Origin: Candidatus Poseidoniaceae archaeon
Lineage (GTDB): Archaea > Thermoplasmatota > Poseidoniia > Poseidoniales > Poseidoniaceae
DNA length: 64,000 nucleotides
Assembly: GCA_965662895.1 (NCBI GenBank)
Contig: CBFIJH010000010.1
Location: 4,563-68,562 of the forward strand
Reading direction: 5' to 3'
The first letter of the stretch is position 1. Every line of letters starts with the position of its first letter. A program made the position numbers and the translations under genes. The notes under the pieces were generated by a model. The model saw only the letters and a list, made by a program, of their open reading frames with translations. It had not been told where the DNA came from and ran no database searches. Positions 7,229 to 61,104 of this stretch are shown in pieces.

Positions 7229-7264
7229 CCGTGAACACCTCTATTCAAGTATGATTCAACGATC

Positions 7265-8413: not shown

Positions 8414-8434
8414 GTCATTTTCCTCCTTTTTTCT

Positions 8435-14907: not shown

Positions 14908-14911
14908 GAAA

Positions 14912-20600: not shown

Positions 20601-21718
20601 TGGAAATGAACGTCGTTGACAAAGCTCGATTGGATGCACTCATGCCTTACTCTCTCGATACGCAATTGCGTTTCCTTACGATTGCCACGCTTCTCCTTTC
20701 TTTCGATGTCGTCAACGGCATGGGTATGCTGGCAGGAAGCGGCTGGGCAACGTATGAAGCCATTCAGAAAGGCGACAAGATATCCATTCTCTTCCTACCA
20801 CTCATCGACGGTCTGACAGCTGCGAATCTGATCAATCAGTTTGAAATCGGCTCCGAGTCGATGCAGAGTTTCCTCATCGGTGGAATCTTCTTCATTGAAG
20901 GTGCTGTCATGATCTATCTCTCTTCGAGAACTGACAGCATCTATGATTCAGAGATCTTCGAATGGAAGGACGATGATGAATTCTTCAACTTCATTGAGTA
21001 CATGGGATTCTCGGGCGTTGCGTCGGCATTGACGGGTGTCATTTACGCCTTTGGAGAGGACCAAACAAACCTTGCATTCTTCCTTACAGCATTGATTCTT
21101 ACAGGACTCGCCATCACTGGTTTTGATAAATCACAAGCAGAAGTACGCTGGCGTCGAGGACTCGGCGTGTTTGGTTCAGTCCTCACATTGTTCATGCTGT
21201 TTTTGAGATTGGATGAGAACTCCGATGATGTATTGTTCAAGTACCTCACACTTGTTATCATCGGCTTGCTTGCGCTTGGATATGGTTTCCTTTACATGCA
21301 GCGAAGGTCAACTTACGACGTGCGAGATGTTGCCATTCCACAAGTCTTTGGTAATGTTGTTCCGAAAGCTCAACGCCAATCCTCTCCAAAACAGTCGAAA
21401 GATGAGGAAGAAGAGGTTGTTGAAGAGGAAGAAGAGGTTGTTGAAGAAGAAAACAACATGACTGTTGAAGAAAAGGAAATCCTCGAATTGGATGAAGCAT
21501 TCGAAGACGAATTGGATGAAATTATCGAGCCAATTGGTAATGCAACCACGGAAAACATTGGTTACATCGAGACCATGGAAGGATTCGATGTCCGTCTACC
21601 AAAGGAATCGATCGAACAAATCACTCGAACCATTGCAATGACACCTCATGAAGGGTTCAAACCGGTTGTTCGAGTCAACATGCTCGGACAAATCGTTCTC
21701 GACTTTGAACCAATTTGA
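17690..21718 (+). CDS. giant polytopic integral membrane protein (~1340 aa, >30 predicted TM helices) with acidic C-terminal soluble region; unknown function
   Basis: It is a single uninterrupted ORF. The track start is TTG at 17690, and the first ATG is at 17717. Hydrophobic helices occur throughout. The C-terminus carries EEEEVVEEEEEVVEEE followed by a ~100-aa soluble segment. Confidence 0.7.
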   Translation: MTSDVLPIQMPAPQRKPQQMVSIANDAIFASEEEEIPFKPVIVRAPGDTKGDSLERFTEIIMFGVAMLAIWTGLLGIAFSENVGEEKFMILFIGGFASSAIALFMVELQAKKNEYRLMISQNYLLGVSFFFMAVGTLWGLRFLGGYFTLQGFEFDGSEFTFLGDVGFDDAENEMFLAGPNMIYVQALGAAAMWFVHRRILDRYKGDTSFGWAVASYIPLGLLLVGVGTWIDWANNEVSYPLGISIVGLCGLAMYSALMSNKSINFAVVSVVSGFIPILYEILNENAPPGGEGGAVSLLVFIIIIQGYLAGNERLKQTLAEKMSFFMIGAVVIAMLIASIQNWNLILGPFKPNELGSDGLASLVTLPVALWITVLCAYFPATHRNRVPAMPIGLAFSLWTLNGDEAILPWVISMVMISYMLFFAEATRKWVANFTMSALAFSYLFSDQIGYGVDQVEMDAAIAIGIVIIAETARRLEKVSIWSSVQTVTFIALSSTILDSPYWFVTWLFVIYLLGMVYESMLRARKGDDMEKRNATLALLTSLIVSSGLLLAKKLEIPDAYQIAGLNGLSLEYLVLGVIVYAIFNTVRDVEVDIGRLLSLLETKASGAYTYDSETNAWYIKEKHVKEKDEVAATEEGSFGSIGRISLAFSLLAVTIGISTLDSSLLEGDTFYLVGLYIIPIGILFWEINSMDVLSSQSRMVGAFMLLIVAASSMPMMLQVDPSDGLFRAGILYDLIFLSAPIGAFVLINKRGLDRDHLSRPADQVMLCVLLVIGMMDQSGGLLFLSMYGLVALVALQYRHHGVTMLAPIATISMHWLGDHGLVYSFLDSFIFSNPDHISEIRVLWFTRVTGMLVAAHMLMPMAWSILDLQKDEYVENPFPWFLPMVWFLFAVWAVLPTASWLPLVACIFGLLNSWVRGDINLVPLLSVGIIFSFMIGFTDGGYFTGEIFGYSMLFSGIIIYLLWFANSRGIMEMNVVDKARLDALMPYSLDTQLRFLTIATLLLSFDVVNGMGMLAGSGWATYEAIQKGDKISILFLPLIDGLTAANLINQFEIGSESMQSFLIGGIFFIEGAVMIYLSSRTDSIYDSEIFEWKDDDEFFNFIEYMGFSGVASALTGVIYAFGEDQTNLAFFLTALILTGLAITGFDKSQAEVRWRRGLGVFGSVLTLFMLFLRLDENSDDVLFKYLTLVIIGLLALGYGFLYMQRRSTYDVRDVAIPQVFGNVVPKAQRQSSPKQSKDEEEEVVEEEEEVVEEENNMTVEEKEILELDEAFEDELDEIIEPIGNATTENIGYIETMEGFDVRLPKESIEQITRTIAMTPHEGFKPVVRVNMLGQIVLDFEPI
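21407..21448 (+). repeat. 2 x 21-nt tandem repeat (gaagaagaggttgttgaagag) encoding EEEVVEE units
   Basis: Direct tandem duplication in the acidic tail of the giant membrane protein. Confidence 0.8.
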
Positions 21719-24789: not shown

Positions 24790-25659
24790 TCATTGGTCTC
24801 GCCAATTTGGAGCATGTACGTCGGCATCTTTGTGCATTGCCAATATTTCAGCAAGAACGGCAATGGCAATCTCTTCAGGCGATTCAGCACCAATGTTCAA
24901 TCCAATTGGGCATCGTACTTTGTCAAGCGTTGAGGATTGAATTCCAACTTCGATGCACGATTCCGTGAACGATTTCCACTTTGACCGACTACCGATAGCT
25001 CCAATGCGAGGAAAAGCCTTGCCATCGGGTGAAACGTCCGCAGCCTCTGCAAGTTGGAGTAGCCGTTGCAGTCGATCAAGATCTTCGGAGTAATCGTGCC
25101 CAAGCAAAAGAACATCTGAAAATCGCATCATTGATTCAACCGTTTCTCCTGAGAAAAATTCATCCACAGTTGAATGAGATCGTTCGATAGCCTCTGGATA
25201 GAGTTCACTCGTTGTGAACGGTTCACGAGTGTCTTGAACAGAGTAATTCCATCCCTTTTTTGGCAAGAGTTTGGTGATGGCTTCTGAGCAGTGTCCCCCT
25301 CCCATCAGTAGAATGTGTGGCATCGGTAGCATCAACTCAAGAGAAATGGTGACTTGTCCACCACAAAGTGAGTCGAGTGGTTGCACTTCATAGCCCTTCG
25401 CCCCTTTATTCAGACCAAAGGTGTGGACCTCAGATGTCGATTTTGATTGATGGATTAATTCTTTGCAGCGAGTGAGAATTCGATGTTCCAAACCGGCCCC
25501 TCCCACAGTTCCTACCCAGTTCTCGGACCGATTCATGGCCAAGCGTGCTCCAGATTTCCCAGGCACACTTCCTTTGGTCGCAACAACGGTAGCGAGAACA
25601 ACGGGCGAATTGTTTTGCAGTTGTTCCAACATCCATGCTAGAACCCTCGCCGTCATGGT
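24790..25659 (-). CDS. XdhC/CoxI-family molybdenum-cofactor insertion chaperone
   Basis: An XdhC_CoxI N-terminal region is followed by a Rossmann-like XdhC C-terminus (LLMGGGHCSEAI...IGAIGSRSK). Confidence 0.7.
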   Translation of the reverse strand, partial: TMTARVLAWMLEQLQNNSPVVLATVVATKGSVPGKSGARLAMNRSENWVGTVGGAGLEHRILTRCKELIHQSKSTSEVHTFGLNKGAKGYEVQPLDSLCGGQVTISLELMLPMPHILLMGGGHCSEAITKLLPKKGWNYSVQDTREPFTTSELYPEAIERSHSTVDEFFSGETVESMMRFSDVLLLGHDYSEDLDRLQRLLQLAEAADVSPDGKAFPRIGAIGSRSKWKSFTESCIEVGIQSSTLDKVRCPIGLNIGAESPEEIAIAVLAEILAMHKDADVHAPNWRDQ

Positions 25660-25692
25660 AGCGCCTCCATGAACACACACATACGATTTGCG

Positions 25693-26277
25693 CTAGAACC
25701 AATCTTCCTCTGATGCGGCGAGAAGGGCCGTCAAGTCAGGCTCAGTGTCGATGTTGAGGTGAAGCCACTTGAACTCGACAAGTAGAGGCTCTCTTCGGAC
25801 CAAAGAGGAGAGTGGGGCATCACGTTCAGCCAGATAAACGGTATTGATGTCCTCTCCTACAAGAACAAGTGGATGGCCGCCGCGTTGGTTCCATACTGGA
25901 CAAGCGCTGATGTCCGACTTCAACAGGTCTTGAACTAGTTCAATACTCCAACCTGGTCGATCTACAGGTGCGATGAGCACCTTTCGGGGCAATCGGCCAT
26001 TTCGCTCGAGAATGCTTGCAAGTCCGCATTGAATCGACCCTGTTCGACCTTTTTCAGGGTCAGGGTTCAGAACAACTTGAGCAGAGGGACATTGAAGCAC
26101 AATGTCTGCAAGAAGGTCGGTGTTGGTCACGATTGTCACCTCAACATACTTCAGACGAAGCAATCTGCTCACAAGTCGTTGAATCAAGGACTGGCCATGG
26201 ACATCGACAAGAGCCTTTGGTTGACCGAGACGAGAAGAGCGACCAGCCGCTATGAGAATCACATCGATGGCGCCCAT
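25693..26277 (-). CDS. molybdenum cofactor cytidylyltransferase / MobA-like NTP-transferase (MocA)
   Basis: IDVILIAAGRSSRLGQPKAL is the MobA-like nucleotide-binding N-terminus. I placed the start at the internal Met to avoid a non-conserved N-extension. Confidence 0.7.
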   Translation of the reverse strand: MGAIDVILIAAGRSSRLGQPKALVDVHGQSLIQRLVSRLLRLKYVEVTIVTNTDLLADIVLQCPSAQVVLNPDPEKGRTGSIQCGLASILERNGRLPRKVLIAPVDRPGWSIELVQDLLKSDISACPVWNQRGGHPLVLVGEDINTVYLAERDAPLSSLVRREPLLVEFKWLHLNIDTEPDLTALLAASEEDWF

Positions 26278-26343
26278 GTTCCAACGATGAACGGAACGAT
26301 GTTGACAATTTCGGTTCATATACCGTGGGTATGAGATGGAATT

Positions 26344-26988
26344 GTGCTTCAAGACATCGAACCTACTCCACATGAGAAATCTCTGCGGTTTCTTCGCGAT
26401 GTTTGCGCAATGGATGGCATTGAGTTAACCGAATCAGAATCGACTCCAAGCATCACGGTTCGAGTGAGAGGACGTTCAAGACGTCATTATGAGATTTTAG
26501 CCTCACGTCAAGTCGGAATCCTCGTCGATGAACCGTGGACGACGGAAATCACAGCTGCAGCATGGAAAAGTGACTTGATGTCGGAGCAGTCGCGTGCTTA
26601 CACGGCAAAGCTGTGTCTGAATATCCATCGCGAAAAGGAGCATCTCCCATTAGGGGATCAACTCGCTGCCCTCGCACTTAGCCTCCATAACGACATTCAA
26701 TTGGCAATGGACATTGCACTCGTCGCTCAGTTTATTGTTTGCCCAAGGGACGAACTCCTGAATGTCCATATCTTTCAAGATGAAATGGTTGTGACTGAAG
26801 AAATGATTGAAAATGGTGGTCCAAGTATTGATGTGAGTTTTGATGAAGGATTCGAATACGAGGATTTTTTCCAACACCTTTGCCCAGTCCATGAGCCTGA
26901 ACATCTTGACCTTGAATTGGGCAGCAGTAATTGGGCTCAAGACTTGGAAGATGATCTTATGCAGCGTTACGAACGAATGAACATCTAA
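26344..26988 (+). CDS. hypothetical acidic protein
   Basis: A 214-aa ORF fills an otherwise empty interval. I recognise no motifs. The start could be the downstream Met (MDGIEL). Confidence 0.35.
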   Translation: MLQDIEPTPHEKSLRFLRDVCAMDGIELTESESTPSITVRVRGRSRRHYEILASRQVGILVDEPWTTEITAAAWKSDLMSEQSRAYTAKLCLNIHREKEHLPLGDQLAALALSLHNDIQLAMDIALVAQFIVCPRDELLNVHIFQDEMVVTEEMIENGGPSIDVSFDEGFEYEDFFQHLCPVHEPEHLDLELGSSNWAQDLEDDLMQRYERMNI

Positions 26989-29368: not shown

Positions 29369-29980
29369 ATGATGTGGAAACGCGGAAGCATCGAAGCCTT
29401 TGGAACCCTCATCATGGTTCTTGCTGGATGTGGAAGCGTTGCATTAGAACGATCAAGTGTTGAGGTTTCACTTGCCTTTGGAGCCTCTGTAGCCATCGTC
29501 ATCTTAACCATCGGACGATGGACGGGAGCGCACATTAATCCTGCAGTATCCATTGCATTCTGGTACAGAGGAGACCTTGCTTCGAAGGATGCAACAGCCC
29601 ACGTGTTGGGTCAATTGATTGGTGCACTTTGTGCCGCTTTGATTCTTCAAGGTGCGGGTCCTACCACGCGAAATACATCGTGGATGAACCTAATTGGCAT
29701 TGAAGTTCTCATCACCTTTGTTCTGATGGCATCGATTTTATGGATCATTCGTCAAACGGATGAATGGTTTCCAATTGCTGTTGTCGTTGGTTCAACCGTA
29801 GCAGTTCTTGCCTTTGTTTTTGGAAAATATACGGGTGCAAGTATGAATCCAGCTCGAACTTTTGGTCCAAATCTCATATCTGGTGATGTGACAATTATAC
29901 CCATCTACTTTGTCTGCACGATAGTTGGGGCTTTGCTTGCAGTTGCAGCAGAGCGGTTCATTGCACCAAGTTCTGAATGA
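29369..29980 (+). CDS. aquaporin/MIP-family channel (short)
   Basis: Two NPA boxes are present (HINPAVS and SMNPART) with 6 hydrophobic segments. At 203 aa it is shorter than typical AqpM. Confidence 0.7.
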   Translation: MMWKRGSIEAFGTLIMVLAGCGSVALERSSVEVSLAFGASVAIVILTIGRWTGAHINPAVSIAFWYRGDLASKDATAHVLGQLIGALCAALILQGAGPTTRNTSWMNLIGIEVLITFVLMASILWIIRQTDEWFPIAVVVGSTVAVLAFVFGKYTGASMNPARTFGPNLISGDVTIIPIYFVCTIVGALLAVAAERFIAPSSE

Positions 29981-37672: not shown

Positions 37673-38272
37673 TTATTTCTCCTTCATCATTCGTTCAACG
37701 GTTTCAACAATCATCATGGTTGTTGAATCGATTTCAAGATTGACTGCGTCACCGATTTGTTTCTCACCGATGGTCGTCAGTCGAAGCGTTTCTGGAATCA
37801 AATGCAAGTCAAAGTGGTTCTCTGAAACTTCGCCTATGGTCAGAGAAATACCGTCGATTCCAATGTACCCTTTGCTGACGATGTACTTTCGGACATCTGG
37901 AGGTACAATAATCGAATACTGGGCACCATCACCAACACCGTCCGCTTTGCTGATGAGACCTCGTCCAATGATGTGTCCTGAAAGCAGATGTCCTCCAATC
38001 TCGTCTCCATATCGCAATGATCGCTCCACATTCACAGAATGGCCTTGTTCAAGTTGGCCCAAGGTTGTCTTTTCGAGGGTTTCTGGGATGACGTCGAACG
38101 AAACAATGTTGTCTGAGAATTCTGTTGCTGTTAAGCAAACACCATCGATGGAAATACTTGCTCCAATCTGCAATCCTTCCGTTGATGGGACGCGAATTCG
38201 AAGCGTTGTAATCTCGTTTCCAGTTTCGATGGAAACGATTTCACCCCGGCCCTGAACGATACCCGTGAACAT
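37673..38272 (-). CDS. ribE: riboflavin synthase alpha chain, bacterial/eukaryotic trimeric type
   Basis: It has the N-terminal MFTGIVQGRGEI signature and an internal duplication of the lumazine-binding barrel (second GYIGIDGISLT repeat). Confidence 0.85.
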   Translation of the reverse strand: MFTGIVQGRGEIVSIETGNEITTLRIRVPSTEGLQIGASISIDGVCLTATEFSDNIVSFDVIPETLEKTTLGQLEQGHSVNVERSLRYGDEIGGHLLSGHIIGRGLISKADGVGDGAQYSIIVPPDVRKYIVSKGYIGIDGISLTIGEVSENHFDLHLIPETLRLTTIGEKQIGDAVNLEIDSTTMMIVETVERMMKEK

Positions 38273-38724
38273 CAGAATTCACCGCCTTTCGCTCGCTCAA
38301 CAATACGAGCAATAATCTTCCGCGTACCATCCAAATCATCGCTCAGACCTTCAACCCGAACGACATCAATCGATGAATAGCCTCGTTCTTCCAAGGCTGT
38401 GCGGATTCGATCTTCTGCATGTTCTTGGTCGTATCCTAAAGCAATCACCGAAGGTTGGATTTCTGGAAGAATATCGAAAATGGGGACATCGGGTGGGTTC
38501 CCAACGCAAGCAACATCAACTGGCTTCAAACCTTCAACCATTCGACGTCGCAAGTCTTGGTTGGTGACAGGTTCGTGTTTTCGCTTACGAACTGTATCGT
38601 CGTGCGCAACGACCACAGTCAAGTGGTCCCCGAGATTTTTGGCTTGTTCCAAATAATGTAAGTGGCCAGCGTGAAGGAGGTCAAAAACTCCAACTGCCAT
38701 GACCTTACGCATCGTGTCCACCAA
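38272..38724 (-). CDS. ribL: FAD synthetase (FMN adenylyltransferase), archaeal RibL type (cytidylyltransferase-like)
   Basis: The nucleotidyltransferase motif (AVGVFDLLHAGHLHYLEQAK) is present, and at ~145 aa the size matches RibL. Confidence 0.7.
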   Translation of the reverse strand: MVDTMRKVMAVGVFDLLHAGHLHYLEQAKNLGDHLTVVVAHDDTVRKRKHEPVTNQDLRRRMVEGLKPVDVACVGNPPDVPIFDILPEIQPSVIALGYDQEHAEDRIRTALEERGYSSIDVVRVEGLSDDLDGTRKIIARIVERAKGGEF

Positions 38725-39585: not shown

Positions 39586-40734
39586 ATGATGGGTGTAAAA
39601 CTAGGTCCAGCGGGCGTACCTTTGTCTTGTAAAGGACGTACAATCGTCGAAGGCATGGACGACATTATTGCTCTCGGACTCGAAACAATGGAAGCGCAAA
39701 CGGTCCGACTCATCCAACCTCAACACTTCGAACAATACTGGCAAGCAGGCGTGCTCGCCAACAAAGCAGATTTTGAGATGAACATTCACGGACCATACTA
39801 TTCGGAACTCCTTGGTAATCGAGTTGAACGAGGTCGATCTCTTGCCAAAATAGAAGCGACATTGCAAGCAGCAAGGACCATTAACGCACGACATGTTACA
39901 TTGCACACTGGACACTACGGTGATTTTGGGCGAGGCACTGCTGCGAACGAACAACTTGCCAACATCTTCTCCAGTATTGTTGAACGTGTTCACGATATTT
40001 GGCACGATGATGAGGACGAATTTCCCGTATTCCCTTGGATAAAAAACGGAACGCCCTCGAAAATTGGCATTGAAACATCCGGTCGCCAGGAATTGTGGGG
40101 TACCCTCGAAGAAGTCATCGAAGTGGTTAATCACGTTGAAGGGACCATTCCCGTTCTCAACATCGCCCACATTCACGCCCGTGGCCACGGACGAATGAAG
40201 ACCTCCGAAGACTATGGCGAGTTGTTTGACATGGTTCGAGAGTCGATTGGTACCAAGGAATTCTATTGCCACTTCTCAGGTGTTGAGCACCGAACTGGAA
40301 ATGCAATGCATTACACGCAGATTAAGAAATCTGACCTAAATTTTGAACCGTTAGCGGAGTTCATTGTCGAGGACGGTGGGTGGTTGGACATCACCCTGAT
40401 ATCAGATTCACCTCTCTTGGAACACGATGCAATGTATATGCTACAAAACATCGACAAAGCCAAACACAAGCAACTTGAACGCAAGGCTCGAGAGGATCGT
40501 CGCCGTGCGCTCGCTGCTCAAACAGGAACATCGGTCGAAGATCTTCAACGTCGTGAAGAAGAAATGGCGAAATTGCGAACACAAGGTGCACCTGAAGAAA
40601 AGCCGGCTGAAAAAGCAAAACCTGAACCTGTCAAGGAAAAGAAACAGGCAAAAAAGAAGACGGCCGCTTCAAAGAAGAAAGAAGAAGAAGACGTCTTCTC
40701 GTTTGATGAAGAAGACGATGACGACTTATTTTGA
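39586..40734 (+). CDS. xylose-isomerase-like TIM-barrel protein, probable endonuclease IV-family AP endonuclease, with Lys-rich then acidic C-terminal tail
   Basis: HGPYYSEL and HTGHYGDF resemble the metal-binding HxxY/HxGxH patterns of Nfo. The C-terminal 90 aa are KEKKQAKKKTAASKKKEEEDVFSFDEEDDDDLF. Confidence 0.5.
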   Translation: MMGVKLGPAGVPLSCKGRTIVEGMDDIIALGLETMEAQTVRLIQPQHFEQYWQAGVLANKADFEMNIHGPYYSELLGNRVERGRSLAKIEATLQAARTINARHVTLHTGHYGDFGRGTAANEQLANIFSSIVERVHDIWHDDEDEFPVFPWIKNGTPSKIGIETSGRQELWGTLEEVIEVVNHVEGTIPVLNIAHIHARGHGRMKTSEDYGELFDMVRESIGTKEFYCHFSGVEHRTGNAMHYTQIKKSDLNFEPLAEFIVEDGGWLDITLISDSPLLEHDAMYMLQNIDKAKHKQLERKAREDRRRALAAQTGTSVEDLQRREEEMAKLRTQGAPEEKPAEKAKPEPVKEKKQAKKKTAASKKKEEEDVFSFDEEDDDDLF

Positions 40735-40824
40735 GTCGGCGATTCAATTCTTGAGCAAAAAAGAGGATTTCTCCCTTCCAATTAGGGAATGCACATAAGG
40801 ACAAAGAGTTCGAAGTCCCGAGTC

Positions 40825-41823
40825 ATGGCACACATCGCGGTGTTAGGATTGGGAAATTGGGGGACTGCAATTGGTCGACTCTGGTTGATGGAAGGCCATC
40901 ATGTCAAAGGGTGGACGATTGAGCAAGAAGTGTATGAATCGATTACAATGGATGGAGTCAATCGAAAGTACCTTCCACAACATTCAGTCGAGGGCATGGA
41001 AGTAACAATGCATCTGGAAGAGGCAGTGGATGGTGTCGAAATCGTTGTTTTGGCCATTCCATCTTCCGTCATCTTGGATGTCGTTCACGATGTCATCCCA
41101 TATCTTCGTCCGGGGCATGTCTTGCTCGATTTAGCAAAAGGTCTTGCCCCAGGTAAACGGCTCATCTCACAGGCGATTCATCAAGCTCTGAGAGAAGCTG
41201 ATTGCTCAAACCCAATGGCGGTCCTTACCGGTCCGACGATTGCACCAGAAGCCGCTGGAGGAGTTATGACAACTGCTCTGGTCGCATCAGAAGACCTTTC
41301 CGTTGCTGAACGTCTTGCAGATACCCTGTCGACTCCAACACTCCTCCTTCATGCTGCATCAGATCCAGAAGGTGCTGAATTATGGGGTGCATTCAAGAAT
41401 GTCGTTGCCCTTGCATGTGGACTAGTTGACGGATTGAAAACGATAGGAACGCTCGGAGGAGACAATCTGAAGGCAGCAATTTTCAGTGCAGGATTCAAGG
41501 AAGGATGCATCCTTTTGCCCTTACTCGGAGCTCGAGCAGAGGTTGCATTTGGCCCTGCAGGCCTCGGCGACCTCTACGTAACCGCCACGTCCCCTTATGG
41601 TAGGAACAGGACGATGGGTGAGAAACTTGGAACTGGTAAGAATTTGGAGCAAGCACTCGCTGAAATGACCATGGTGGCTGAAGGCGTACGGGCTGCGAGA
41701 ATGTTCCGAGACCGCGCAATCGATCAAGGAATTGAGATTCCGTTTACGAAAGCGCTCAATACCCTTCTTGATGGGGCAATCGAAGCAGAAGAATGCTGTC
41801 GCCGTATGGTTCTCTTGGGATAA
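40825..41823 (+). CDS. gpsA: NAD(P)H-dependent glycerol-3-phosphate dehydrogenase (bacterial GpsA type)
   Basis: An N-terminal Rossmann (IAVLGLGNWGTA) is present, along with the central GAFKNVVALACGLVDGL and GDLYVTATSPYGRNR. These are characteristic of GpsA. Confidence 0.75.
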   Translation: MAHIAVLGLGNWGTAIGRLWLMEGHHVKGWTIEQEVYESITMDGVNRKYLPQHSVEGMEVTMHLEEAVDGVEIVVLAIPSSVILDVVHDVIPYLRPGHVLLDLAKGLAPGKRLISQAIHQALREADCSNPMAVLTGPTIAPEAAGGVMTTALVASEDLSVAERLADTLSTPTLLLHAASDPEGAELWGAFKNVVALACGLVDGLKTIGTLGGDNLKAAIFSAGFKEGCILLPLLGARAEVAFGPAGLGDLYVTATSPYGRNRTMGEKLGTGKNLEQALAEMTMVAEGVRAARMFRDRAIDQGIEIPFTKALNTLLDGAIEAEECCRRMVLLG

Positions 41824-41838
41824 GGCCGATTTCCTCAT

Positions 41839-42090
41839 ATGGAGGTAGGATATCCTCCAAACATGTCAGATGACGACTCCTCTGATTTGACCGATTTTGA
41901 AGAGGGCCTGCTTGAATGGTTGTGTGAAAACAACTTCCATGTTGAACCTTGGTCAACAAAGAAGGCTGCAAAGCAATTCTACGTTGAAGAAGAAGCAATT
42001 TACGAAGCAATTGCTGCTTTGACACGAAAGGTTCCACTGCGGATTCAAGTCTTTTACAAGAATGGGGCACTTCACATCGCTGCAGATTAG
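41839..42090 (+). CDS. small acidic hypothetical protein (83 aa)
   Basis: A clean ORF fills the interval between gpsA and the convergent permease gene. Confidence 0.35.
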   Translation: MEVGYPPNMSDDDSSDLTDFEEGLLEWLCENNFHVEPWSTKKAAKQFYVEEEAIYEAIAALTRKVPLRIQVFYKNGALHIAAD

Positions 42091-49663: not shown

Positions 49664-50650
49664 TTGGCAGACAGAGCGGGAATGAGGGCTATGTTTCGAG
49701 GCACTGTTGACCGCTCAAGCCATGAAGGTGGCCTCCTCGTGAAATTCAGTGGTTCATCACCCGCTCTCGGATCAATTATCGTTCGTGAAGAGGATGGCCA
49801 TTACATTGGCAAAATTGATGCTGTTCTCGGTTCAACAGACTCACCATTAGCGCATGTTGCTCACCTCGATCGTAAGCAGGACAATGCATCCTTCTTGGGT
49901 TCAACTGTCATCGTTCGAGCCAAGAAAGAACGTGAAGAACGCCCTCCTCGTCATGAGCAACGAAACGATCGTCGACAAGAACGAAATGAGCGTTCCTTTG
50001 ACCGTCGAGATGGCCGTTCAAGAAATGACGCTCAAAAAGACGATTGGGTATGTGCATCGTGTGAAAATGTCAACTTCTCATGGAGAAAGGAATGCAACAG
50101 TTGCGGTAAATCCAAAGATGGTAATGTGAAAGAATACAAGTCATCGTTCAGAAATGACAACCATTCCAACAATCGCCGTGAACGGCCTCGTCAGGAAAAC
50201 CATGGCCGGAACGACTGGGAATGCCCTGCATGCAACAATATCAATTTCTCATTCCGAACGGAATGCAACAAATGTGGAAAACCGAAACCAGGGGGTCGAG
50301 GCGGTGGACATTCACGTGGAGGACGTGATTCCAACCGTCGTGGTGGTTTCCGTGGAGGACGTGATTCTAACCGACGTGGTGGAAACCGAGACAGAGGGCG
50401 AAACTTTGGAGGAAATCGAGACGGTCGTGATTCCGACCGTCGTGGTGGAAACCGAGACAGAGGGCGAAACTCTGGAGAAAACAGAGGTGATCGAGATTCA
50501 GGACGAGGTCGGTCAAATCGTGATCGTGACAATCAACGTCCGAATGAGCGCTATCGAAAGGCTCGAGGAAAGCGACCTGGACATGCACACAATCGAGGTC
50601 CACAACCTATCCGGCCGCGGCGATATCAACGAAGAGATCAAGACGATTGA
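49664..50650 (+). CDS. Gar1-like H/ACA RNP domain fused to two RanBP2-type zinc fingers and an RGG/RDS-repeat tail
   Basis: The N-terminal ~85 aa match the Gar1 barrel pattern ([18 protein letters not shown]...[18 protein letters not shown]...FLGSTVIV). The first zinc finger is [22 protein letters not shown] (50045-50104) and the second is [22 protein letters not shown] (50216-50281). Both fit W-x-C-x2-C-x3-N-x6-C-x2-C exactly. An ([11 protein letters not shown])n tail follows. Confidence 0.7.
50285..50534 (+). repeat. nested ~46- and ~66-nt tandem DNA repeats encoding the RGG/RDS tail
   Basis: ggaggacgtgattc[c/t]aaccg[t/a]cgtggtgg is duplicated, and cgtggtggaaaccgagacagagggcgaaact occurs twice (~50375 and ~50441). 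Confidence 0.8.
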
Positions 50651-51725: not shown

Positions 51726-52973
51726 TCAGAGCGCAGCTTGGAATGCATCGATGACTTCTTGTTTTAGTTTCTCCCAAGGAAAGGTCGCTCCCGAAGGTTG
51801 ACGGCCGAAGTGACCACCTGCAGCAGTAACACCGTAGATAGGTGCTGCGAGCCCGAGATCACGAATGATATGCCCCGGTTTGAACGAAAAGTGCGCATCA
51901 ACAAGTTGAGCGATGGCATCGTCTGAGATTCTACCACTTCCAAAGGTGTCAACACGGATACTAACAGGGTCTGCAACACCAATCGCATAAGCCAGTTGAA
52001 TCTCGCATTCTGTCGATAGCCCTGCGGCTACGACGTGTTTCGCTGCCCAGCGGGCAGCATAAGCAGCAGAACGATCGACCTTTGTCGGGTCCTTGCCAGA
52101 AAACGCTCCACCACCATGCCGTCCACGACCACCGTACGTATCGACAATGATTTTTCGTCCAGTTAGGCCTGCATCTGCATAAGGACCACCTGGATCTGCG
52201 AACCGACCGGTTGAATTTACGTGAATTGTCGTCTTCTCTTCAAGGATGAGAGTTGATGGGACAACAGGTTCGATGATGTGTTGAATGACTTGTTCACGTA
52301 TCCAAGCCTGTTCTGCCTGCTCTGAGCCAAATTCTGCAATCATATCTTGATGCTGAACTGCAATAACGATGTTATCGGCATAAAGCGGTTGACCGTCCGT
52401 GCCATGCATCAGTGTCACCTGAGATTTCGCATCAGGTCGAGCCCATGGAAGTGTTCCATCGAGACCCGCTTTGCTCACTTTACGAGTTAACGCTTGAGAG
52501 AGTGCAATAGCCAAAGGCATCCAACGTCCTTGATGTTCGGGATAAGATTCGGTCTCATCGCATGCATAACCGAACATGAGTCCTTGATCGCCAGCACCTT
52601 GCTCATCAATGGACTGAACAACACCACGGTTGATATGAGCAGATTGATTTGTGATTAATTCCGTCACCTCGCACAGTTCTTCTGATGTTGCATCCATACC
52701 AATACTGTGCGATGTGTATCCAATGTTGGCTGCAGTTTTTCGGGCGATGGCGACATAATCTGGAGCATCGATACCGGTTGCAAGTTTCACCTCACCAGCA
52801 AGCACAATGTGTGAACGATCTTCTCGACCTTTTACGAGAGTTTCAACAGCAACCTTCGCTTTTGGGTCAAGTGAGAGACAAGCATCAACAATGGCATCAG
52901 AAATAGCATCGCATAATTTGTCAGGGTGGCCTGCAGCCACTGACTCAGAGGTAAACAACCAGTTTTGTGCCAT
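51726..52973 (-). CDS. metK: S-adenosylmethionine synthetase, bacterial/eukaryotic MetK type
   Basis: ESVAAGHPDKLCDAISDAIVDA and the GAGDQGLMFGYA signature are present, plus the C-terminal GGGAFSGKDPTKVDRSAAY. Confidence 0.9.
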   Translation of the reverse strand: MAQNWLFTSESVAAGHPDKLCDAISDAIVDACLSLDPKAKVAVETLVKGREDRSHIVLAGEVKLATGIDAPDYVAIARKTAANIGYTSHSIGMDATSEELCEVTELITNQSAHINRGVVQSIDEQGAGDQGLMFGYACDETESYPEHQGRWMPLAIALSQALTRKVSKAGLDGTLPWARPDAKSQVTLMHGTDGQPLYADNIVIAVQHQDMIAEFGSEQAEQAWIREQVIQHIIEPVVPSTLILEEKTTIHVNSTGRFADPGGPYADAGLTGRKIIVDTYGGRGRHGGGAFSGKDPTKVDRSAAYAARWAAKHVVAAGLSTECEIQLAYAIGVADPVSIRVDTFGSGRISDDAIAQLVDAHFSFKPGHIIRDLGLAAPIYGVTAAGGHFGRQPSGATFPWEKLKQEVIDAFQAAL

Positions 52974-54438: not shown

Positions 54439-57400
54439 CTATTGTTGCTGTTGCGCTTGAGCAGCATATTGTTGAGCATACTGTGCAGCCGTTGCCTCAT
54501 CGTAACCTTGCGCTACGAACTGTTGGTAGTACTGATTGTAGTATTGCGTGTACAAATCATTGCTCGCAGCGGGTGCAGCAGCAGCGGCAGGAGCCGCAGC
54601 AGCCTGTCCAACATACTGAGCGGCATAAGCTCGTGCGGTTTCCTCAGGATATCCTTGAGCAATCAATTGTTGCACATACTGTTCAGTCATGTCCATCTCT
54701 TGTCCATAACCAGCAGCAGCTGCACTCAAGTTGTCGATCTTCTCGCCGCTACCTCCACGGAGGAAGAGTACGGAAACAACGAGGAGCACCAAGACTGAGG
54801 CGATGATTCCTATGATGAGCATCATGCTATCGTCTTCTGTTTCTTCGCTTGATTGTTCGTTGTTTGACTGTTCAGTCCACTCGCCGGTTTCTGGGTCGTA
54901 GGTCCAATCACCATTTTCTGAAATCCAATCACACTGCAAGGTGGTAGTGTTCCAAACGAAACCACCGCCGGCAAGGGCAGCGCTTGAATTGGCAAGAACG
55001 CCACGACAGATACTCAATTTCACTCCTACCGACTTGGTAAGGTTGTCCGACCAACGCTCGTCATCACCTTCGTACACTCGAACCCAAATCTCTACTACTT
55101 CGCTTGTGTTGCTGTATCGGTCGCCGATGAAGAGCGACAATTCGAACGATTCTGAGTCGGAAAGAGCTTCCGTTCGGTCAAATCTGTTGTTGGATTGAAG
55201 ATTGTACTTCTCAATTGCAGATGCTTTGAAATCATCCTTGTTGAATGCTGCTTCAACATAGACTTCACCAGTTTCAGAACCTGAGAGTATGGTTCCAGTA
55301 ATGGTGTAGGTTTGATCGGAAACAAATCCGGACTCATTTGAGAAATCATCGTATTGGACTTCAGGCATTTCATCACCAAAACCATCAGGAACGACGACGA
55401 AATACATTCTGTATTTGTCAGAGAATTTGCCGGATGCGTCGTAAACGCGCAGTTCCATACGGATTTGAGACTCCGCTGTTCCTGAATCATCGACGGTTAC
55501 GTTCTTGAATCTGTAGGAGAAGAGTCCATTGCTTGCAGCGGTTTCCTCGAATGTGTGACCTTCCAAATTGAACGATGTGTCACCATAAGGCGCATCAAAG
55601 AAGATCTTCCATTCGTAGGTGACAATACCGTTGCTTCCGTCGATAGCGTCCGCATCGAAGGATTCACTAGCATCAAAGTGAACAACAAGTTCACCAGATT
55701 CAGGTAAAATGATTCGGTTGACGTCCCATTCCGCGCTCGATACGGTCTTCGTTCCAGTGAACTCAATGTTGTCAACATACTCATCTCGCATGTCAATGCT
55801 CATGTTTGCTTCAGGTGCAAATGCATCGGCCAGTACATCGTTTGTTTCAACAACTACCGAGATGATTCGAGCGTGACCTGCCTCATCATGAAGCATGAGC
55901 GTCACAGTCCATTGCGCACCCTGGAGACAACCTGTTGCTGAAGACAGGTCGGTCTTACAGAAGGTTGCTGTCGGGGACGCTTCGGAGATATGATCGGTTC
56001 CAGTCGCCATCGTCTGTCCCATCCAGTCGGTTGGGCCATCAAGAATCCAGTCTGCAGTTAATGGTACAGAGGTCCCTGTCATGTAAGCGAAATTGACCGT
56101 CGCATCGCTCTTCATGTAATGCGTTGCGTATCCACCGGTCGATGGGTCGATACCTGGCATCTCATCGTCAATTTTGAGGCCAAGATCTTGTCCCATCGAG
56201 CCAAAGCCTTCAGGATACGGCGTTACTGAGAATTCCAACATGTTTCCGAGAAGCGGGAAGGTTGTGCTGTCGGCTCGTGAGGAATACGTTGCAACATCGA
56301 TGGTCGAGACAATCATACCACCTTGGTAGTAGCTGCACGTACCCATAATGACGTCTTTGCTGTTTTCGCTTGTTCTCAAGAGGCTCTGGAAGTATCCACC
56401 GTCCTCCATGTAACCGTTGCAAACACCAGGAACATTCTGTGTGCTGACCGAGTTCGTATTGAGAACCGCAGTTGCAACCGTTCCATCGCCCTCAAATCCT
56501 TGGAAGGCTGTCGTTGAAACGTTGTCCATGATTGGGTGGAACGGATCAGCGATGTCGAGACCTGTGTACAGAATCTTCGTTCCGGGTGTGTCTCGGCTCT
56601 GAACGTCCATTCCGAACGGCAATCGACCGTTCAATCCGACATCAAGACCGTAAATTTGCGTACCTTGTGGACCAAGGTGTGCTTGGACGGTACCACCAGC
56701 GGACATGAACGACTCGAGAGTCTGTCGGTTGGCAGTTGACCCCAATTTTTGATAATAGCCACGGCCACCGCTTTCAACGTCTTTCGCTGCTACATCATCC
56801 TGCCATGGAAGGAGAATCTTGTCGTAATGCGTCATCCATCCAGAATCGAGATACGTGGTCCAATCGTTGATTGCAAACTGTGTGTAACTCATTCCTAGCG
56901 TTTGCAAGTCTTCCTTGATGGTGGAGGTTCGAGCGGTTGAATCGCTTAGGATAGCAACATCGATCTGATCGGCAAAGGTCGCGTGGAAATAACGAACGTT
57001 TCCACTCGGGTTTCCGTTTGCAAGTTCTGCGTGGAAGCTGATGTTGTAGGTATGGCCATCCATCCAATTGTTGAAGGAAGGGAACGTCAAATCAATTCGT
57101 TCGTTTGAGGCAAGTGCCGTGGTCGTCGAAGAGGATGATGCTTGATGGACTTGCATTCCGTCAGTTTCGTCAAAGACCGTCATGTAGAACATGTAATCTC
57201 CGCCGAGCACTCCGTTTGTTGCCCTGAGGTCCCAACTGTGGGCTAGACTACCATCGATTGGTAGAACACACTCGTAGGTACCATCATCAAGACATGCAAG
57301 TGTGCTCGGTTTACCGAGCGTGATGTCGACAGATTCGACGTTGAAAATCACCTGTTCGATGTTGTTCGAATCGCTCAACTCATTGTCACCAAACCAAGGG

Positions 57401-60400
57401 ACTCCCGCTGTCGTGTTGTCAAAAATCGTTTCAGCACGAATCATGTAAACGCCTGAGAAGAATTCGTGGTTTGCAACGGTTGTGGTCGCAACGTCTTCTG
57501 CATCAACGTTGGTGCGGGACGTGGTGTAGGAGGCTTCTTCAAAGAACGTAAATTCTTGCAGTGTGATGTTGTTAAACGCCACACCCTTGAAGCCATCGTT
57601 GACCCCGTTTCGACCATCGCCATCGCTCTGGAATTCAAAGTTGATGTCAACCGTTGAACCTGCTAATGAGATGCACTCGCGGAACCACTGTAGGCTGTCG
57701 GCGGCTGTGTTGTTGAGAACATAAAGATGCGTCAAGTCAATGCTTCTGGTAAGTACAAGATCGTCTGTGTTGAAGAAAACGTTGTAATTTCCACCGGAGC
57801 CATCCGTGCTTGATGAATCGCCAATGAATGAGATTTCTGCTTGATTGACGGATTCGCTTGAGTTTGTTACCCCATCATCGTTGTCGTCGTTTCGGCATGT
57901 GCCATCCTCGTCGTAATCGTTCCACTGTCCGAGAAGAACCGCTGAGTACGAATCTGAACCCTTGGTGAAGTCGACGTTAATCGATGCGTAGTCGTTCACG
58001 TCGACAATCGAGGTTCCATCGACATCGATACCATAGAAGGTGTCAGCGTAGTACTCGAAGTTCAACGAAACGAAATCTCCGGACATTCCTGTCAAATCGA
58101 CGTTCGGAATTGTGAGCGTTTCATTTTCCCAGAGGTCGCCATAACCTTGCGTAGCAGTATCACAGGGGTGGCCAAACCAATACGCATTGTTGTTGAAGAT
58201 TGGATCGTTGCACGTGGCTTCGTTGTAGATTGCTCCTTGTGGGTTGCCATCATCGCTGTAGACGTATCCTTCAGCTCCACCTTCGAACGATTCCTTACAG
58301 ATAACCGCTGGTGCGCTACACAACACATCGGACGGTGTTGCAGAGAAGACTGTCGCTTCAATGTCAAAGTCAACCATGGTATTGCCCCAGTTGTTGGTGA
58401 CAACATCGATGTCAAACAGCCCTTCAGCATACAATCCACCAGGATTGAAGTACTCGATTCCTTCGATGGTAGGGTCGTAGAGGTTGAACGGTTGTACGTA
58501 GCCGATGATGTCATCGTTAACGGATTGCTCATCCCATGCATGATTGCTCAGTGTTGCTGAAATTCGGTAGATTGTATCGTTGAGTAGATTTGCAGAAATG
58601 TTTGCAGTCTCTGTTTCACCCGGCCCAAGATTCTGGAGACTGAGTTGGCGCTGAAGCGTTTGTGGGTTCGGGAAATATGCAGTGTTCTGTTTGTAGATGG
58701 TAACGTTATCAATGGCATATCCATCACGACCGGTCCACAGCGACTCGTTATCATCAGCGATGGAACCTTCAAACCCGGAACGGAGTCGGAAACGAATGTC
58801 GACCGTTTCACCGGCCCATGGTGAAAGATCGAATTCACCGACGCCATCTTGCGTAAAGTTGTCCCATCCATAATATGTACCGGAGCTGTAGAGGCCGTAA
58901 TAGTAGACACCTTCGGCGACACCTCCGATGCCGTTGATCTTGAACGCCCGATCGTTGTCGTACCCGCCCCAAAGAGTGGAGCCTGAAAGACAAGCACCAG
59001 CAACTTGTGCAGAGGTTGGACATGCGATGACCGACCATCCAGTTTCGTCAGACCCGACTTCAATCATCGCCACATCGTCCCATAGTTCTCCAATGAGCCA
59101 TTGTCCAGTTGTAGCGTCAACAGAACCCAAGGCTCCAAAGCCAAGGTGGCGGAACAACTCAACGCTGAGGAAGGCTCGGTCAGAGCCAGTCAAATCAACA
59201 TCTGTCAATGTCAAGGCATCGTCCCAATGTCGGCCGTAACCAGACCAGAGGTCTCCACTGCTGTTGGTCTTGTATTCCCCTGCCCACATGAAGTCGGTTG
59301 GGTTCTGGTAGTTCGCAGATAGGTTCGGCGCGTTGTTTCCGTCGGTTGCACCCACGGAATTGTTCGTTTCAAGAATCCAGCTCGAGGATTGATCGACATA
59401 CTCGTCAAAGGACCACGTACATCCTCCACCGCAACCTGTTGCATCTGCAGGAGTATCGAAGTCGTGCGTAAATACTGTGGAATTCGATGAGTTGGCTTCG
59501 TCGACGACCTTGAGTTCAACATCGAGCGTCGCTGTTTGTGTGAGCGTGTCCATTCCAGTGTTTGTGACGGTGACATTGATTTCACGAGTACCTTCACCGA
59601 CTGCACCAAAGAAACGGTCAACAGGATTGATGTCTATGCCAGTAATCGCAATGTCTTTGTTGTCCATTTCGACAACAGTGACATAGTCGTACTGACCATC
59701 CCATCCAAGGTTATCAATCCAACTTCCGAAACTGTAGGACGCATGTCCAACAACGATATCAGGTGCAGAGTTCGAAGCACCCGCAAGTTGTCCAACAACG
59801 GCGATGTTTGGTCGACGGCCGGCCTCGTAGGAGAGTGGTGTCACGTAGCCACCCGATCCATCGGAGAGGGTGACTTGAACAGTTGTTGGGAAGTTGAGCC
59901 AGAAGGAGGATGTTGAACCCCCAGCTGAGTCCGATGTGTTTTGTTGGTAAGCAACGGTTGGGTTGACGAAGTCTGGTTCGCCATCGCCGTTGATGTCTGC
60001 GACAGTGACGTCATAGGAGATGTACGGCCCAAAGTAAGCAAGTGTGGGATTCGACCAGGTTCCAACCGTTGATGATGTTGAATACGTGATGTTCTCCAGA
60101 TTCCCTTGCGTCATAGCGATGGTGTCGATTGTTCCATCGTCATCGATATCACCGATGTCGAATGCTCCAAACGTGTTGGCCATGTTCACGACGTGAGTGT
60201 CGATTTGATTGGTTCCGTAAGCATAGGTTGTTGGGAATTGGTTTGAAAGACAATTGAATTCGATGATTGTAACGTTGTCGTCGTTACCCGGGTTTGTGGT
60301 TTGACCGGTCGTGTAGTCAACACCTTCGCTCCTTAGGAGCCAAATGTCCTCGTCGACGCAGGTGGTTCCAATCCCTTGTGTTTCGCCCCAATCGCCGATT

Positions 60401-61104
60401 TCGAGATCTCTGTAGGCGTTCGTGTTCGACGTTCCCAACGATGTTGTCAGTGGCGTTGTACTCGCTCCGATTGGGCCGAGGTAGGTGACGACACGTTGAT
60501 TTGAGATATCGTTGAGCAGGTCGAGGATAACGACGTCATCGTTTCCATCCTGGTTAACGTCCCCGACGGCGAGGTCCCATGCCCAAAAGTGGGTGAATCG
60601 TTGGCCGATGGTGAAGGAGTTGCTGCTGCACCCATCGTTTTCAAGGATGGTCAAGTTACCTGGTTCGCCAGCCGGCGCACCGTTATCGTCTCTCTTGAAC
60701 GGGTTGTTTCTCTGGAAAATGACGATGTCTGCCACACCATCGCCATCGAAATCACCGACTTCGAGGAATTGAACGTTGGAGAACTCATCCCATTCTGCGT
60801 TACGCGAGGTGTTCTTCGAAACCCATACGTCGTAGCGCTCAGAGAAATCTCCGTTACCATCGTTGAGGAGAATGGAGATGGTGTGCGTACCGTCTGTTGC
60901 AATCGCCATGTCGTTGTGACCATCGCAATTGAAGTCGGCAATACCGATGTCAATCGGATCACGATTTGTTGTGTAATTTCGGGCAGCGGAGGCGCTTGCA
61001 TTGGTTGCAAATGCAGCCGTCGTCGATAGAACCATAATGAGAACGAGGAAAATACTCTGAAGTTTTGACCCGATTTGGTTTGTCTTTGTTTGCATCAATA
61101 TCAC
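54439..61104 (-). CDS. giant (2221 aa) cell-surface protein with N-terminal FG-GAP/integrin-alpha-like repeats, long beta-rich ectodomain, C-terminal TM helix and repetitive cytoplasmic tail
   Basis: A signal peptide is present. FG-GAP-like DxDxDG motifs follow (DFNCDGHNDMAI, GDFDGDGVADIV, GDVNQDGNDDVV, DINGDGEPDFV). A TM helix (LIIGIIASVLVLLVVSVLFL) is followed by a 106-aa Ala/Gln/Tyr-rich tail. Confidence 0.75.
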   Translation of the reverse strand: MILMQTKTNQIGSKLQSIFLVLIMVLSTTAAFATNASASAARNYTTNRDPIDIGIADFNCDGHNDMAIATDGTHTISILLNDGNGDFSERYDVWVSKNTSRNAEWDEFSNVQFLEVGDFDGDGVADIVIFQRNNPFKRDDNGAPAGEPGNLTILENDGCSSNSFTIGQRFTHFWAWDLAVGDVNQDGNDDVVILDLLNDISNQRVVTYLGPIGASTTPLTTSLGTSNTNAYRDLEIGDWGETQGIGTTCVDEDIWLLRSEGVDYTTGQTTNPGNDDNVTIIEFNCLSNQFPTTYAYGTNQIDTHVVNMANTFGAFDIGDIDDDGTIDTIAMTQGNLENITYSTSSTVGTWSNPTLAYFGPYISYDVTVADINGDGEPDFVNPTVAYQQNTSDSAGGSTSSFWLNFPTTVQVTLSDGSGGYVTPLSYEAGRRPNIAVVGQLAGASNSAPDIVVGHASYSFGSWIDNLGWDGQYDYVTVVEMDNKDIAITGIDINPVDRFFGAVGEGTREINVTVTNTGMDTLTQTATLDVELKVVDEANSSNSTVFTHDFDTPADATGCGGGCTWSFDEYVDQSSSWILETNNSVGATDGNNAPNLSANYQNPTDFMWAGEYKTNSSGDLWSGYGRHWDDALTLTDVDLTGSDRAFLSVELFRHLGFGALGSVDATTGQWLIGELWDDVAMIEVGSDETGWSVIACPTSAQVAGACLSGSTLWGGYDNDRAFKINGIGGVAEGVYYYGLYSSGTYYGWDNFTQDGVGEFDLSPWAGETVDIRFRLRSGFEGSIADDNESLWTGRDGYAIDNVTIYKQNTAYFPNPQTLQRQLSLQNLGPGETETANISANLLNDTIYRISATLSNHAWDEQSVNDDIIGYVQPFNLYDPTIEGIEYFNPGGLYAEGLFDIDVVTNNWGNTMVDFDIEATVFSATPSDVLCSAPAVICKESFEGGAEGYVYSDDGNPQGAIYNEATCNDPIFNNNAYWFGHPCDTATQGYGDLWENETLTIPNVDLTGMSGDFVSLNFEYYADTFYGIDVDGTSIVDVNDYASINVDFTKGSDSYSAVLLGQWNDYDEDGTCRNDDNDDGVTNSSESVNQAEISFIGDSSSTDGSGGNYNVFFNTDDLVLTRSIDLTHLYVLNNTAADSLQWFRECISLAGSTVDINFEFQSDGDGRNGVNDGFKGVAFNNITLQEFTFFEEASYTTSRTNVDAEDVATTTVANHEFFSGVYMIRAETIFDNTTAGVPWFGDNELSDSNNIEQVIFNVESVDITLGKPSTLACLDDGTYECVLPIDGSLAHSWDLRATNGVLGGDYMFYMTVFDETDGMQVHQASSSSTTTALASNERIDLTFPSFNNWMDGHTYNISFHAELANGNPSGNVRYFHATFADQIDVAILSDSTARTSTIKEDLQTLGMSYTQFAINDWTTYLDSGWMTHYDKILLPWQDDVAAKDVESGGRGYYQKLGSTANRQTLESFMSAGGTVQAHLGPQGTQIYGLDVGLNGRLPFGMDVQSRDTPGTKILYTGLDIADPFHPIMDNVSTTAFQGFEGDGTVATAVLNTNSVSTQNVPGVCNGYMEDGGYFQSLLRTSENSKDVIMGTCSYYQGGMIVSTIDVATYSSRADSTTFPLLGNMLEFSVTPYPEGFGSMGQDLGLKIDDEMPGIDPSTGGYATHYMKSDATVNFAYMTGTSVPLTADWILDGPTDWMGQTMATGTDHISEASPTATFCKTDLSSATGCLQGAQWTVTLMLHDEAGHARIISVVVETNDVLADAFAPEANMSIDMRDEYVDNIEFTGTKTVSSAEWDVNRIILPESGELVVHFDASESFDADAIDGSNGIVTYEWKIFFDAPYGDTSFNLEGHTFEETAASNGLFSYRFKNVTVDDSGTAESQIRMELRVYDASGKFSDKYRMYFVVVPDGFGDEMPEVQYDDFSNESGFVSDQTYTITGTILSGSETGEVYVEAAFNKDDFKASAIEKYNLQSNNRFDRTEALSDSESFELSLFIGDRYSNTSEVVEIWVRVYEGDDERWSDNLTKSVGVKLSICRGVLANSSAALAGGGFVWNTTTLQCDWISENGDWTYDPETGEWTEQSNNEQSSEETEDDSMMLIIGIIASVLVLLVVSVLFLRGGSGEKIDNLSAAAAGYGQEMDMTEQYVQQLIAQGYPEETARAYAAQYVGQAAAAPAAAAAPAASNDLYTQYYNQYYQQFVAQGYDEATAAQYAQQYAAQAQQQQ

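Follow-up and report, generated by a model that had tools for sequence, protein, structure and literature searches.

The gpsA locus

The 64,000-nt stretch analysed here as one window (positions 4,563 to 68,562 of contig CBFIJH010000010.1, assembly GCA_965662895.1, labelled as a Candidatus Poseidoniaceae archaeon) contains gpsA, a gene predicted to encode an NAD(P)H-dependent sn-glycerol-3-phosphate dehydrogenase. The gene lies within a conserved arrangement of ribE, a RibL-like cytidylyltransferase gene and ribB on the - strand, followed by a TIM-barrel gene, gpsA and an 83-aa open reading frame (ORF) on the + strand and the phosphonate-type ABC transporter genes phnECD again on the - strand. 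The gpsA coding sequence, assigned on the basis of Pfam, NCBIfam, PDB, AlphaFold2 (AF2)/Foldseek and dN/dS evidence, spans 40825..41823 (+ strand; 332 codons and a stop), while the ORF list of the window gives 40789..41823 (+ strand). The difference is an in-frame upstream extension with an alternative ATG at 40789 (40789..40824, + strand). Translated from the ATG at 40825, GpsA comprises 332 aa with the N-terminus MAHIAVLGLGNWG, which is the length called for the great majority of GpsA homologues; only the two nearest homologue clusters, both of which share the upstream ATG, are called at 344 aa. As most homologues are 332 aa long and the first Rossmann β-strand of the AF2 model starts already at residue 3, the start at 40825, also chosen in the initial annotation of the sequence, is considered right and the extension is probably not translated.

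Assignment of the protein to GpsA

Family models specific for glycerol-3-phosphate dehydrogenases (G3PDHs) match the protein. The N-terminal NAD-binding domain PF01210 is recognized at residues 4-160 (E 2.1e-33), the C-terminal helical substrate-binding domain PF07479 at residues 180-324 (E 3.5e-36) and the bacterial-type C-terminal sub-domain PF20618 at residues 245-310 (E 2.4e-15). The first 14 NCBIfam matches are all named 'NAD(P)H-dependent glycerol-3-phosphate dehydrogenase', and two subfamily models are above threshold, NF000942 with 261.8 bits (cut-off 257) and NF000940 with 213.9 bits (cut-off 202). Domain and subfamily scores alike lie far above what chance would give. Among solved structures, Coxiella GpsA is nearest in sequence (3k96, E 1.2e-41), with further matches to Thermotoga GpsA (1.5e-30) and to the Archaeoglobus fulgidus and Leishmania G3PDHs (~1e-27).

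Residue conservation was assessed on 66 diverse GpsA homologues, with identity down to 31%, and on 80 Poseidoniales orthologues, and motifs were aligned to five solved reference G3PDHs (Coxiella, Thermotoga, A. fulgidus, Leishmania and human). The GxGxxG dinucleotide-binding motif G8-L-G10-N-W-G13 (40846..40863, + strand) aligns to GAGSWG of the Coxiella and Thermotoga enzymes, whereby among the 66 diverse sequences G10 and G13 do not vary and G8 is kept in at least 90%. The substrate-binding/catalytic Lys105 in LAKGL (41137..41139, + strand) corresponds to the lysine of the KG motif in all PDB G3PDHs, the catalytic pair Lys191-Asn192 in FKNV (41395..41400, + strand) to the (V/L)KN motif of the five solved enzymes, and Asp249, Thr253 and Arg260-Asn261 in GLGDLYVTATSPYGRN (41569..41607, + strand) to the phosphate/substrate-binding loop GDL..T....RN of solved G3PDHs. 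K105, K191, N192, D249, T253, R260 and N261 are invariant in the 66 diverse homologues as well as in the 80 orthologues. The roles of these seven residues are carried over from the Leishmania and human GPDH structures and are presumably the same here; R260 aligns to the arginine of the GRNR motif in human GPD1L, which we take, by its numbering, to be the Arg269 mutated in PDB 6pyp.

The AF2 model built on the 66-sequence alignment has high confidence scores (pLDDT 95.5, pTM 0.91), with a β-α-β unit from residue 3 onwards. When this model was compared with the PDB by Foldseek, ranks 1-26 were exclusively occupied by NAD-dependent G3PDHs (E 1e-29 to 8e-20, TM 0.82-0.90), separated by an E-value gap of 11 orders of magnitude from the next enzymes, among them 3-hydroxyisobutyrate, mandelate and ketopantoate dehydrogenases (E from 5e-9, TM ~0.5-0.6). 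As family scores, catalytic residues and Foldseek ranking all point to G3PDH, the protein is, judged by sequence and modelled fold, a GpsA rather than another dehydrogenase of the 6-phosphogluconate dehydrogenase (6PGDH) fold. From family membership, it is predicted to catalyse the reaction of dihydroxyacetone phosphate (DHAP) and NAD(P)H to sn-glycerol-3-phosphate (G3P; EC 1.1.1.94).

The two domains, the catalytic residues and the fold are shared with the biosynthetic bacterial enzymes of Coxiella burnetii (3k96) and Thermotoga maritima (1z82; TM 0.84-0.91), and family and fold (TM 0.90) with the likewise archaeal GpsA of A. fulgidus (1txg). The archaeal glycerol-1-phosphate (G1P) dehydrogenase EgsA (G1PDH), a member of the Fe-ADH/DHQS-like superfamily, uses the same substrate DHAP and the same cofactor class and has the same role in setting the stereochemistry of the lipid backbone, but is unrelated in fold and forms the product of opposite stereochemistry.

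Lineage of the contig and conservation of the locus

When one genome was scanned for each prokaryotic species, 407 loci with a gpsA relative were identified, the best 80 of which were analysed. These 80 loci show 79-95% identity and are almost all labelled Poseidoniales, Poseidoniaceae, Marine Group IIa (MGIIa) or with older synonyms; among them is the closed Marine Group II (MGII) genome CM001443, with a GpsA 81% identical to the window protein. The gene order given above is kept over ~20 kb in essentially all loci long enough to tell. The start of the window has as best family matches ADH synthase, 3-dehydroquinate synthase II and an archaeal GHMP-type shikimate kinase, which together constitute the archaeal route to shikimate, and the GC content is even across the window (0.46-0.51), which argues against a chimeric contig. 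Scans for tRNAs and Rfam families in the window gave nothing taxonomically informative. The contig is archaeal and belongs to Poseidoniales (MGIIa, Poseidoniaceae).

Two related contigs are found in metagenome-assembled genomes (MAGs) labelled as bacteria, namely CAXQWT010000081.1 (1-5245) and CALDQY010000088.1 (1-11544), assigned to Salipiger bermudensis and an uncultured Rhodobiaceae. Along their whole length both are collinear with the window at 34.4-42.4 kb (~80% nucleotide identity), which identifies them as contigs from Poseidoniales that were mis-binned, and they could give false 'bacterial' matches for MGII genes.

Enzyme identity and lineage, taken jointly, can be stated with high confidence. 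The initial annotation had described a clear bacterial-type GpsA in an archaeal-looking genome, a description borne out on the protein side by Pfam, NCBIfam, the invariant residues and the Foldseek ranking and on the genome side by the best 80 of the 407 loci, the ~20-kb synteny and the archaeal-type shikimate genes. It had also named two ways in which it might fail: profiles and structure do not place the protein with another 6PGDH-fold dehydrogenase, and locus scan and synteny do not point to a bacterial contig.

Selection and phylogeny

The gene is under very strong purifying selection. Against close orthologues among the 80 from Poseidoniales, dN is 0.03-0.08 with dS >1.6, giving ω values of 0.016-0.047 which, as dS is saturated, are rough and a caveat on precision, yet clearly far below 1.

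In an exhaustive search of 1.84 billion representatives with HMMER, 10,882 relatives were retrieved, among which identity falls from 66% for Poseidoniales clusters to 40% and then reaches a plateau of 31-39%. A distance tree of 151 taxa (neighbour-joining, 200 bootstraps) united the Poseidoniales GpsA sequences in one long-branched clade in 199 of the 200 bootstraps, with the placement of this clade among the 151 sequences receiving at most 27% support; low resolution is likewise a feature of published GpsA trees (PMC6431249). Named Poseidoniaceae (MGIIa) and Thalassarchaeaceae (MGIIb) form separate groups, each supported by 300/300 bootstraps, and the nearest named relatives are bacterial, with Anaerotignum (37% identity) and Nomurabacteria. 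Among the five references, the A. fulgidus GpsA lies farthest away (1.70 vs 1.48-1.57 for the bacterial and eukaryotic enzymes) and joins the Poseidoniales clade in only 3/200 bootstraps, which argues against a shared archaeal origin. Given the clean MGIIa/MGIIb clade together with a Marine Group III (MGIII) that possesses egsA and lacks gpsA, the simplest history would be a gene gained once, long ago, by the Poseidoniales stem after the MGIII split and then passed on by vertical descent.

Protein P0122 from the transcriptome of the euglenid Petalomonas cantuscygni (EukProt EP01013), a GpsA of 390 aa with a 27-aa Ala-rich insertion, aligns to window positions 40825-41820. Besides P0122 (47-52% identity, sister in 200/200 bootstraps) the Poseidoniales clade has no close outgroup. 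The closest relatives of P0122 anywhere are the MGIIb GpsAs at ~50%, and no other eukaryotic homologue was found. The sequence could reflect a transfer from an archaeon to the euglenid or the presence in the culture of an unsampled, Poseidoniales-like archaeon.

Published record on Poseidoniales GpsA

For Poseidoniales, gpsA and what it means for the lipid divide have been published since 2016-2018, so that the window provides one more species-level orthologue and not a new finding. It represents the same gene (K00057), with 79-95% identity to named Poseidoniaceae MAGs and the same neighbourhood, as reported previously (Villanueva 2017; Rinke 2018, PMC6461757), and no substantive difference from the published gene was seen. 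Villanueva et al. (2017, Environ Microbiol 19:54), as cited in PMC7852524 and PMC6962369, described MGII as devoid of G1PDH and equipped with GGGPS, DGGGPS and PlsC. Rinke et al. (2018, ISME J) found egsA (K00096) in 0/270 Poseidoniales MAGs, gpsA in all genera, with genus Q1 excepted in the main text, and plsC homologues in most genera, whereas MGIII shows the opposite pattern with egsA present and gpsA absent (PMC6461757). A tetraether synthase was reported in 1/231 MGII MAGs (Zeng et al. 2022), and a review of 2026 still treats the MGII case as genomic inference. The initial annotation had seen the gene as relevant for the lipid divide or else for glycerol catabolism, which corresponds to the published discussion of the same gene in the same lineage (PMC7852524, PMC6461757, PMC6962369).

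Possible role of the glycerol-3-phosphate

The best overall explanation, held with good though not full confidence, is that the window carries the MGIIa orthologue of a Poseidoniales core gene, intact, vertically inherited and a likely supplier of glycerophosphate. The enzyme would form sn-G3P from DHAP and NAD(P)H, and with EgsA absent this G3P would be the most likely glycerophosphate source for membrane lipids, be it for ether isoprenoid lipids on a G3P backbone, for acyl esters or for both. This lipid-backbone role, which draws on the order-wide presence of gpsA and absence of egsA, is ranked first among the roles considered, although its probability is put at somewhat below one half. It is suggested since not one of the 270 MAGs has a G1P dehydrogenase, yet GGGPS, DGGGPS and PlsC-like genes are reported. 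The stricter version, with GpsA as the sole glycerophosphate source and Poseidoniales membranes built on sn-G3P as an order-wide natural exception to the 'lipid divide', is put forward still more tentatively.

Several points weigh against the overall explanation. Pfam annotation of the ~47 ORFs of the window gave no match to the PlsC, PlsY or PlsX families, which are the partners of GpsA in bacterial hosts, no EgsA or other Fe-ADH/G1PDH-type protein and no GGGPS gene. The window thus holds no lipid-pathway partner of gpsA and alone does not decide the fate of the G3P, nor do the conserved neighbours give a hint of GpsA function. The protein, ~29-40% identical to bacterial GpsA and placed in a separate clade, reaches subfamily-level NCBIfam cut-offs and no equivalog-level one, which fits a divergent lineage-specific form. 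Coleman et al. (2019), who found GpsA sporadically across archaeal classes in a tree that shows bacteria-to-archaea transfers, doubt that such patchily distributed genes of bacterial type have a part in making archaeal membranes (PMC6431249). Water dominated by MGII contained neither archaeal intact polar lipid glycerol dialkyl glycerol tetraethers nor unusual mixed lipids (Besseling et al. 2020, PMC6962369). Further, an egsA-independent route to G1P appears to exist in E. coli and perhaps Cloacimonetes (PMC7852524, PMC6431249), and with such an unknown route the absence of egsA is no proof of the absence of G1P. Literature searches yielded no characterised enzyme, and no enzymology, culture or lipid stereochemistry for any Poseidoniales.

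Two of these points, the alternative G1P route and the inconspicuous lipids of MGII-rich water, are equally what would be expected if GpsA was biosynthetic with its G3P used for polar head groups or other reactions, while the backbone was built on G1P from an egsA-independent enzyme. In archaetidylglycerol-type lipids the glycerophosphate derives from sn-G3P, and other archaea with normal G1P lipids keep a GpsA, such as A. fulgidus (1txg), which retains the normal G1P pathway. The sporadic GpsAs of other archaeal classes (PMC6431249) are in line with such a use. No candidate G1P-forming enzyme is known in the 270 MAGs, however, and the order-wide retention of gpsA with loss of egsA, reversed in the sister group MGIII, argues for replacement rather than coincidence, so that this explanation, second in rank, is considered rather unlikely. 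A mainly catabolic or redox function, with G3P from imported glycerol, degraded phospholipids or glycerophosphodiesters oxidized to DHAP for glycolysis or gluconeogenesis, would suit the lifestyle of Poseidoniales as heterotrophs that degrade proteins and lipids and carry genes for the degradation of fatty acids (PMC6461757). The window indeed encodes, by Pfam, an acyl-CoA dehydrogenase and a single MIP-family channel (29369-29980). This channel is situated 11 kb from gpsA and is better explained as aquaporin Z (67.8 bits) than as aquaglyceroporin (34 bits), no GlpK or GlpA/GlpD match was obtained among the ~47 ORFs and no glpK, glpA/glpD or glpF-type gene lies beside gpsA in the window. Bacterial glycerol catabolism proceeds through GlpK and the flavoprotein GlpD or GlpABC, with GpsA running in the biosynthetic direction, and it is the biosynthetic NAD(P)H-dependent GpsA models that the window protein matches. 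The catabolic function thus ranks third and is improbable.

A mis-assigned 6PGDH-fold dehydrogenase or a bacterial or chimeric contig is effectively refuted. Weak secondary matches to F420_oxidored, NAD_binding_2 and prephenate dehydrogenase models could be read in favour of the former, but the best non-G3PDH families in Pfam and NCBIfam reach at best E 3e-7, and this only over the first ~100 residues, that is the generic Rossmann domain, compared with 1e-33 to 1e-78 for G3PDH models. The protein has the C-terminal domains and catalytic residues specific to G3PDHs, and the structural similarity to non-G3PDH enzymes is low. The Salipiger- and Rhodobiaceae-labelled contigs, which could speak for a bacterial origin, are mis-binned, and the GC content is uniform.

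The hypothesis of sn-G3P membranes in Poseidoniales is already published, and even if it holds true the window would not be its discovery. The window adds support only, through strict conservation, vertical inheritance and an intact active site; the wider significance lies with the earlier publications. The question of the lipid backbone remains a good one, as most models of eukaryote origin need a switch from G1P to G3P membranes, for which an abundant archaeal order without G1P dehydrogenase and with a universal, conserved GpsA is the best natural candidate. It also bears on the reading of marine archaeal lipid proxies such as TEX86. In the surface ocean, Poseidoniales belong to the archaea of highest abundance. 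The intact, strongly constrained and vertically inherited gene makes a good candidate for heterologous expression.

Neighbouring genes and other features of the window

Directly upstream of gpsA and co-oriented with it, an endonuclease IV-like TIM-barrel protein is encoded (PF01261, E 2.2e-10; 39586..40734, + strand). The gene adjoins gpsA in 72/80 loci with 79-98% identity and an almost invariant catalytic domain, and across Poseidoniaceae the protein is more conserved than GpsA. Its match to the NCBIfam model for nfo is faint (E 0.002), and the JGI name is 'deoxyribonuclease-4'. The His/Glu motifs IHGPYY, LHTGH, ETSG, AHIHARGH and CHFSG resemble what we take to be the metal-ligand motifs of endonuclease IV, and the C-terminus is a Lys/Glu-rich charged tail of ~90 aa ending in DDDDLF. 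Profile and sequence searches gave no PDB relative, and the AF2 model is poor (pLDDT 43.8). A function as partner of GpsA, for example as a sugar-phosphate isomerase, was considered and is unsupported, the sole specific resemblance being that to endonuclease IV; the protein is probably unrelated to GpsA function. Downstream, the 83-aa ORF (41839..42090, + strand) starts 16 nt past the gpsA stop codon and is present at this position in 75/80 loci. It has no Pfam or NCBIfam match and is possibly co-transcribed with gpsA.

The small cytidylyltransferase-like protein (38272-38724, - strand) could have been tied to G3P as a G3P cytidylyltransferase (TagD), but the TagD match covers the N-terminal half only (1.5e-9), and this assignment was rejected. 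The best PDB match over the full length is Thermoplasma 3glv (1e-25) and the gene is located between riboflavin synthase (ribE) and 3,4-dihydroxy-2-butanone 4-phosphate synthase (ribB), which makes the archaeal FAD synthase RibL the better reading. The protein is probably RibL, although no curated RibL model was matched.

Elsewhere in the window, an S-adenosylmethionine synthetase of the bacterial/eukaryotic MetK type (51726-52973, - strand; TIGR01034, 440 bits vs cut-off 309) adjoins the S-adenosylhomocysteine hydrolase gene. Most archaea use a different, archaeal-type methionine adenosyltransferase, and with MetK this archaeon would have a further housekeeping enzyme of bacterial type. A protein encoded at 49664-50650 (+ strand) combines two RanBP2-type zinc ribbons (PF00641), a domain better known from eukaryotes, with a subsequent long Arg/Gly/Asp-rich region of low complexity. 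Two giant ORFs encode a secreted or anchored protein of 2221 aa with FG-GAP repeats and a C-terminal transmembrane segment (54439-61104, - strand) and a polytopic membrane protein of 1342 aa with no Pfam match (17690-21718, + strand). At 5915-10033 (- strand), a MoxR-type AAA+ ATPase (AAA_3) that is Pro/Ala-rich at its N-terminus precedes DUF58 and DUF4350 proteins, an arrangement that looks like a MoxR-DUF58 chaperone-like cluster. The FAD-binding subunit and the 1008-aa molybdenum cofactor subunit of a molybdoenzyme of the xanthine dehydrogenase/aldehyde oxidase family are encoded at 11126-15129 (- strand), with XdhC and MobA-like cofactor maturation genes located ~10 kb away (24790-26373, - strand).

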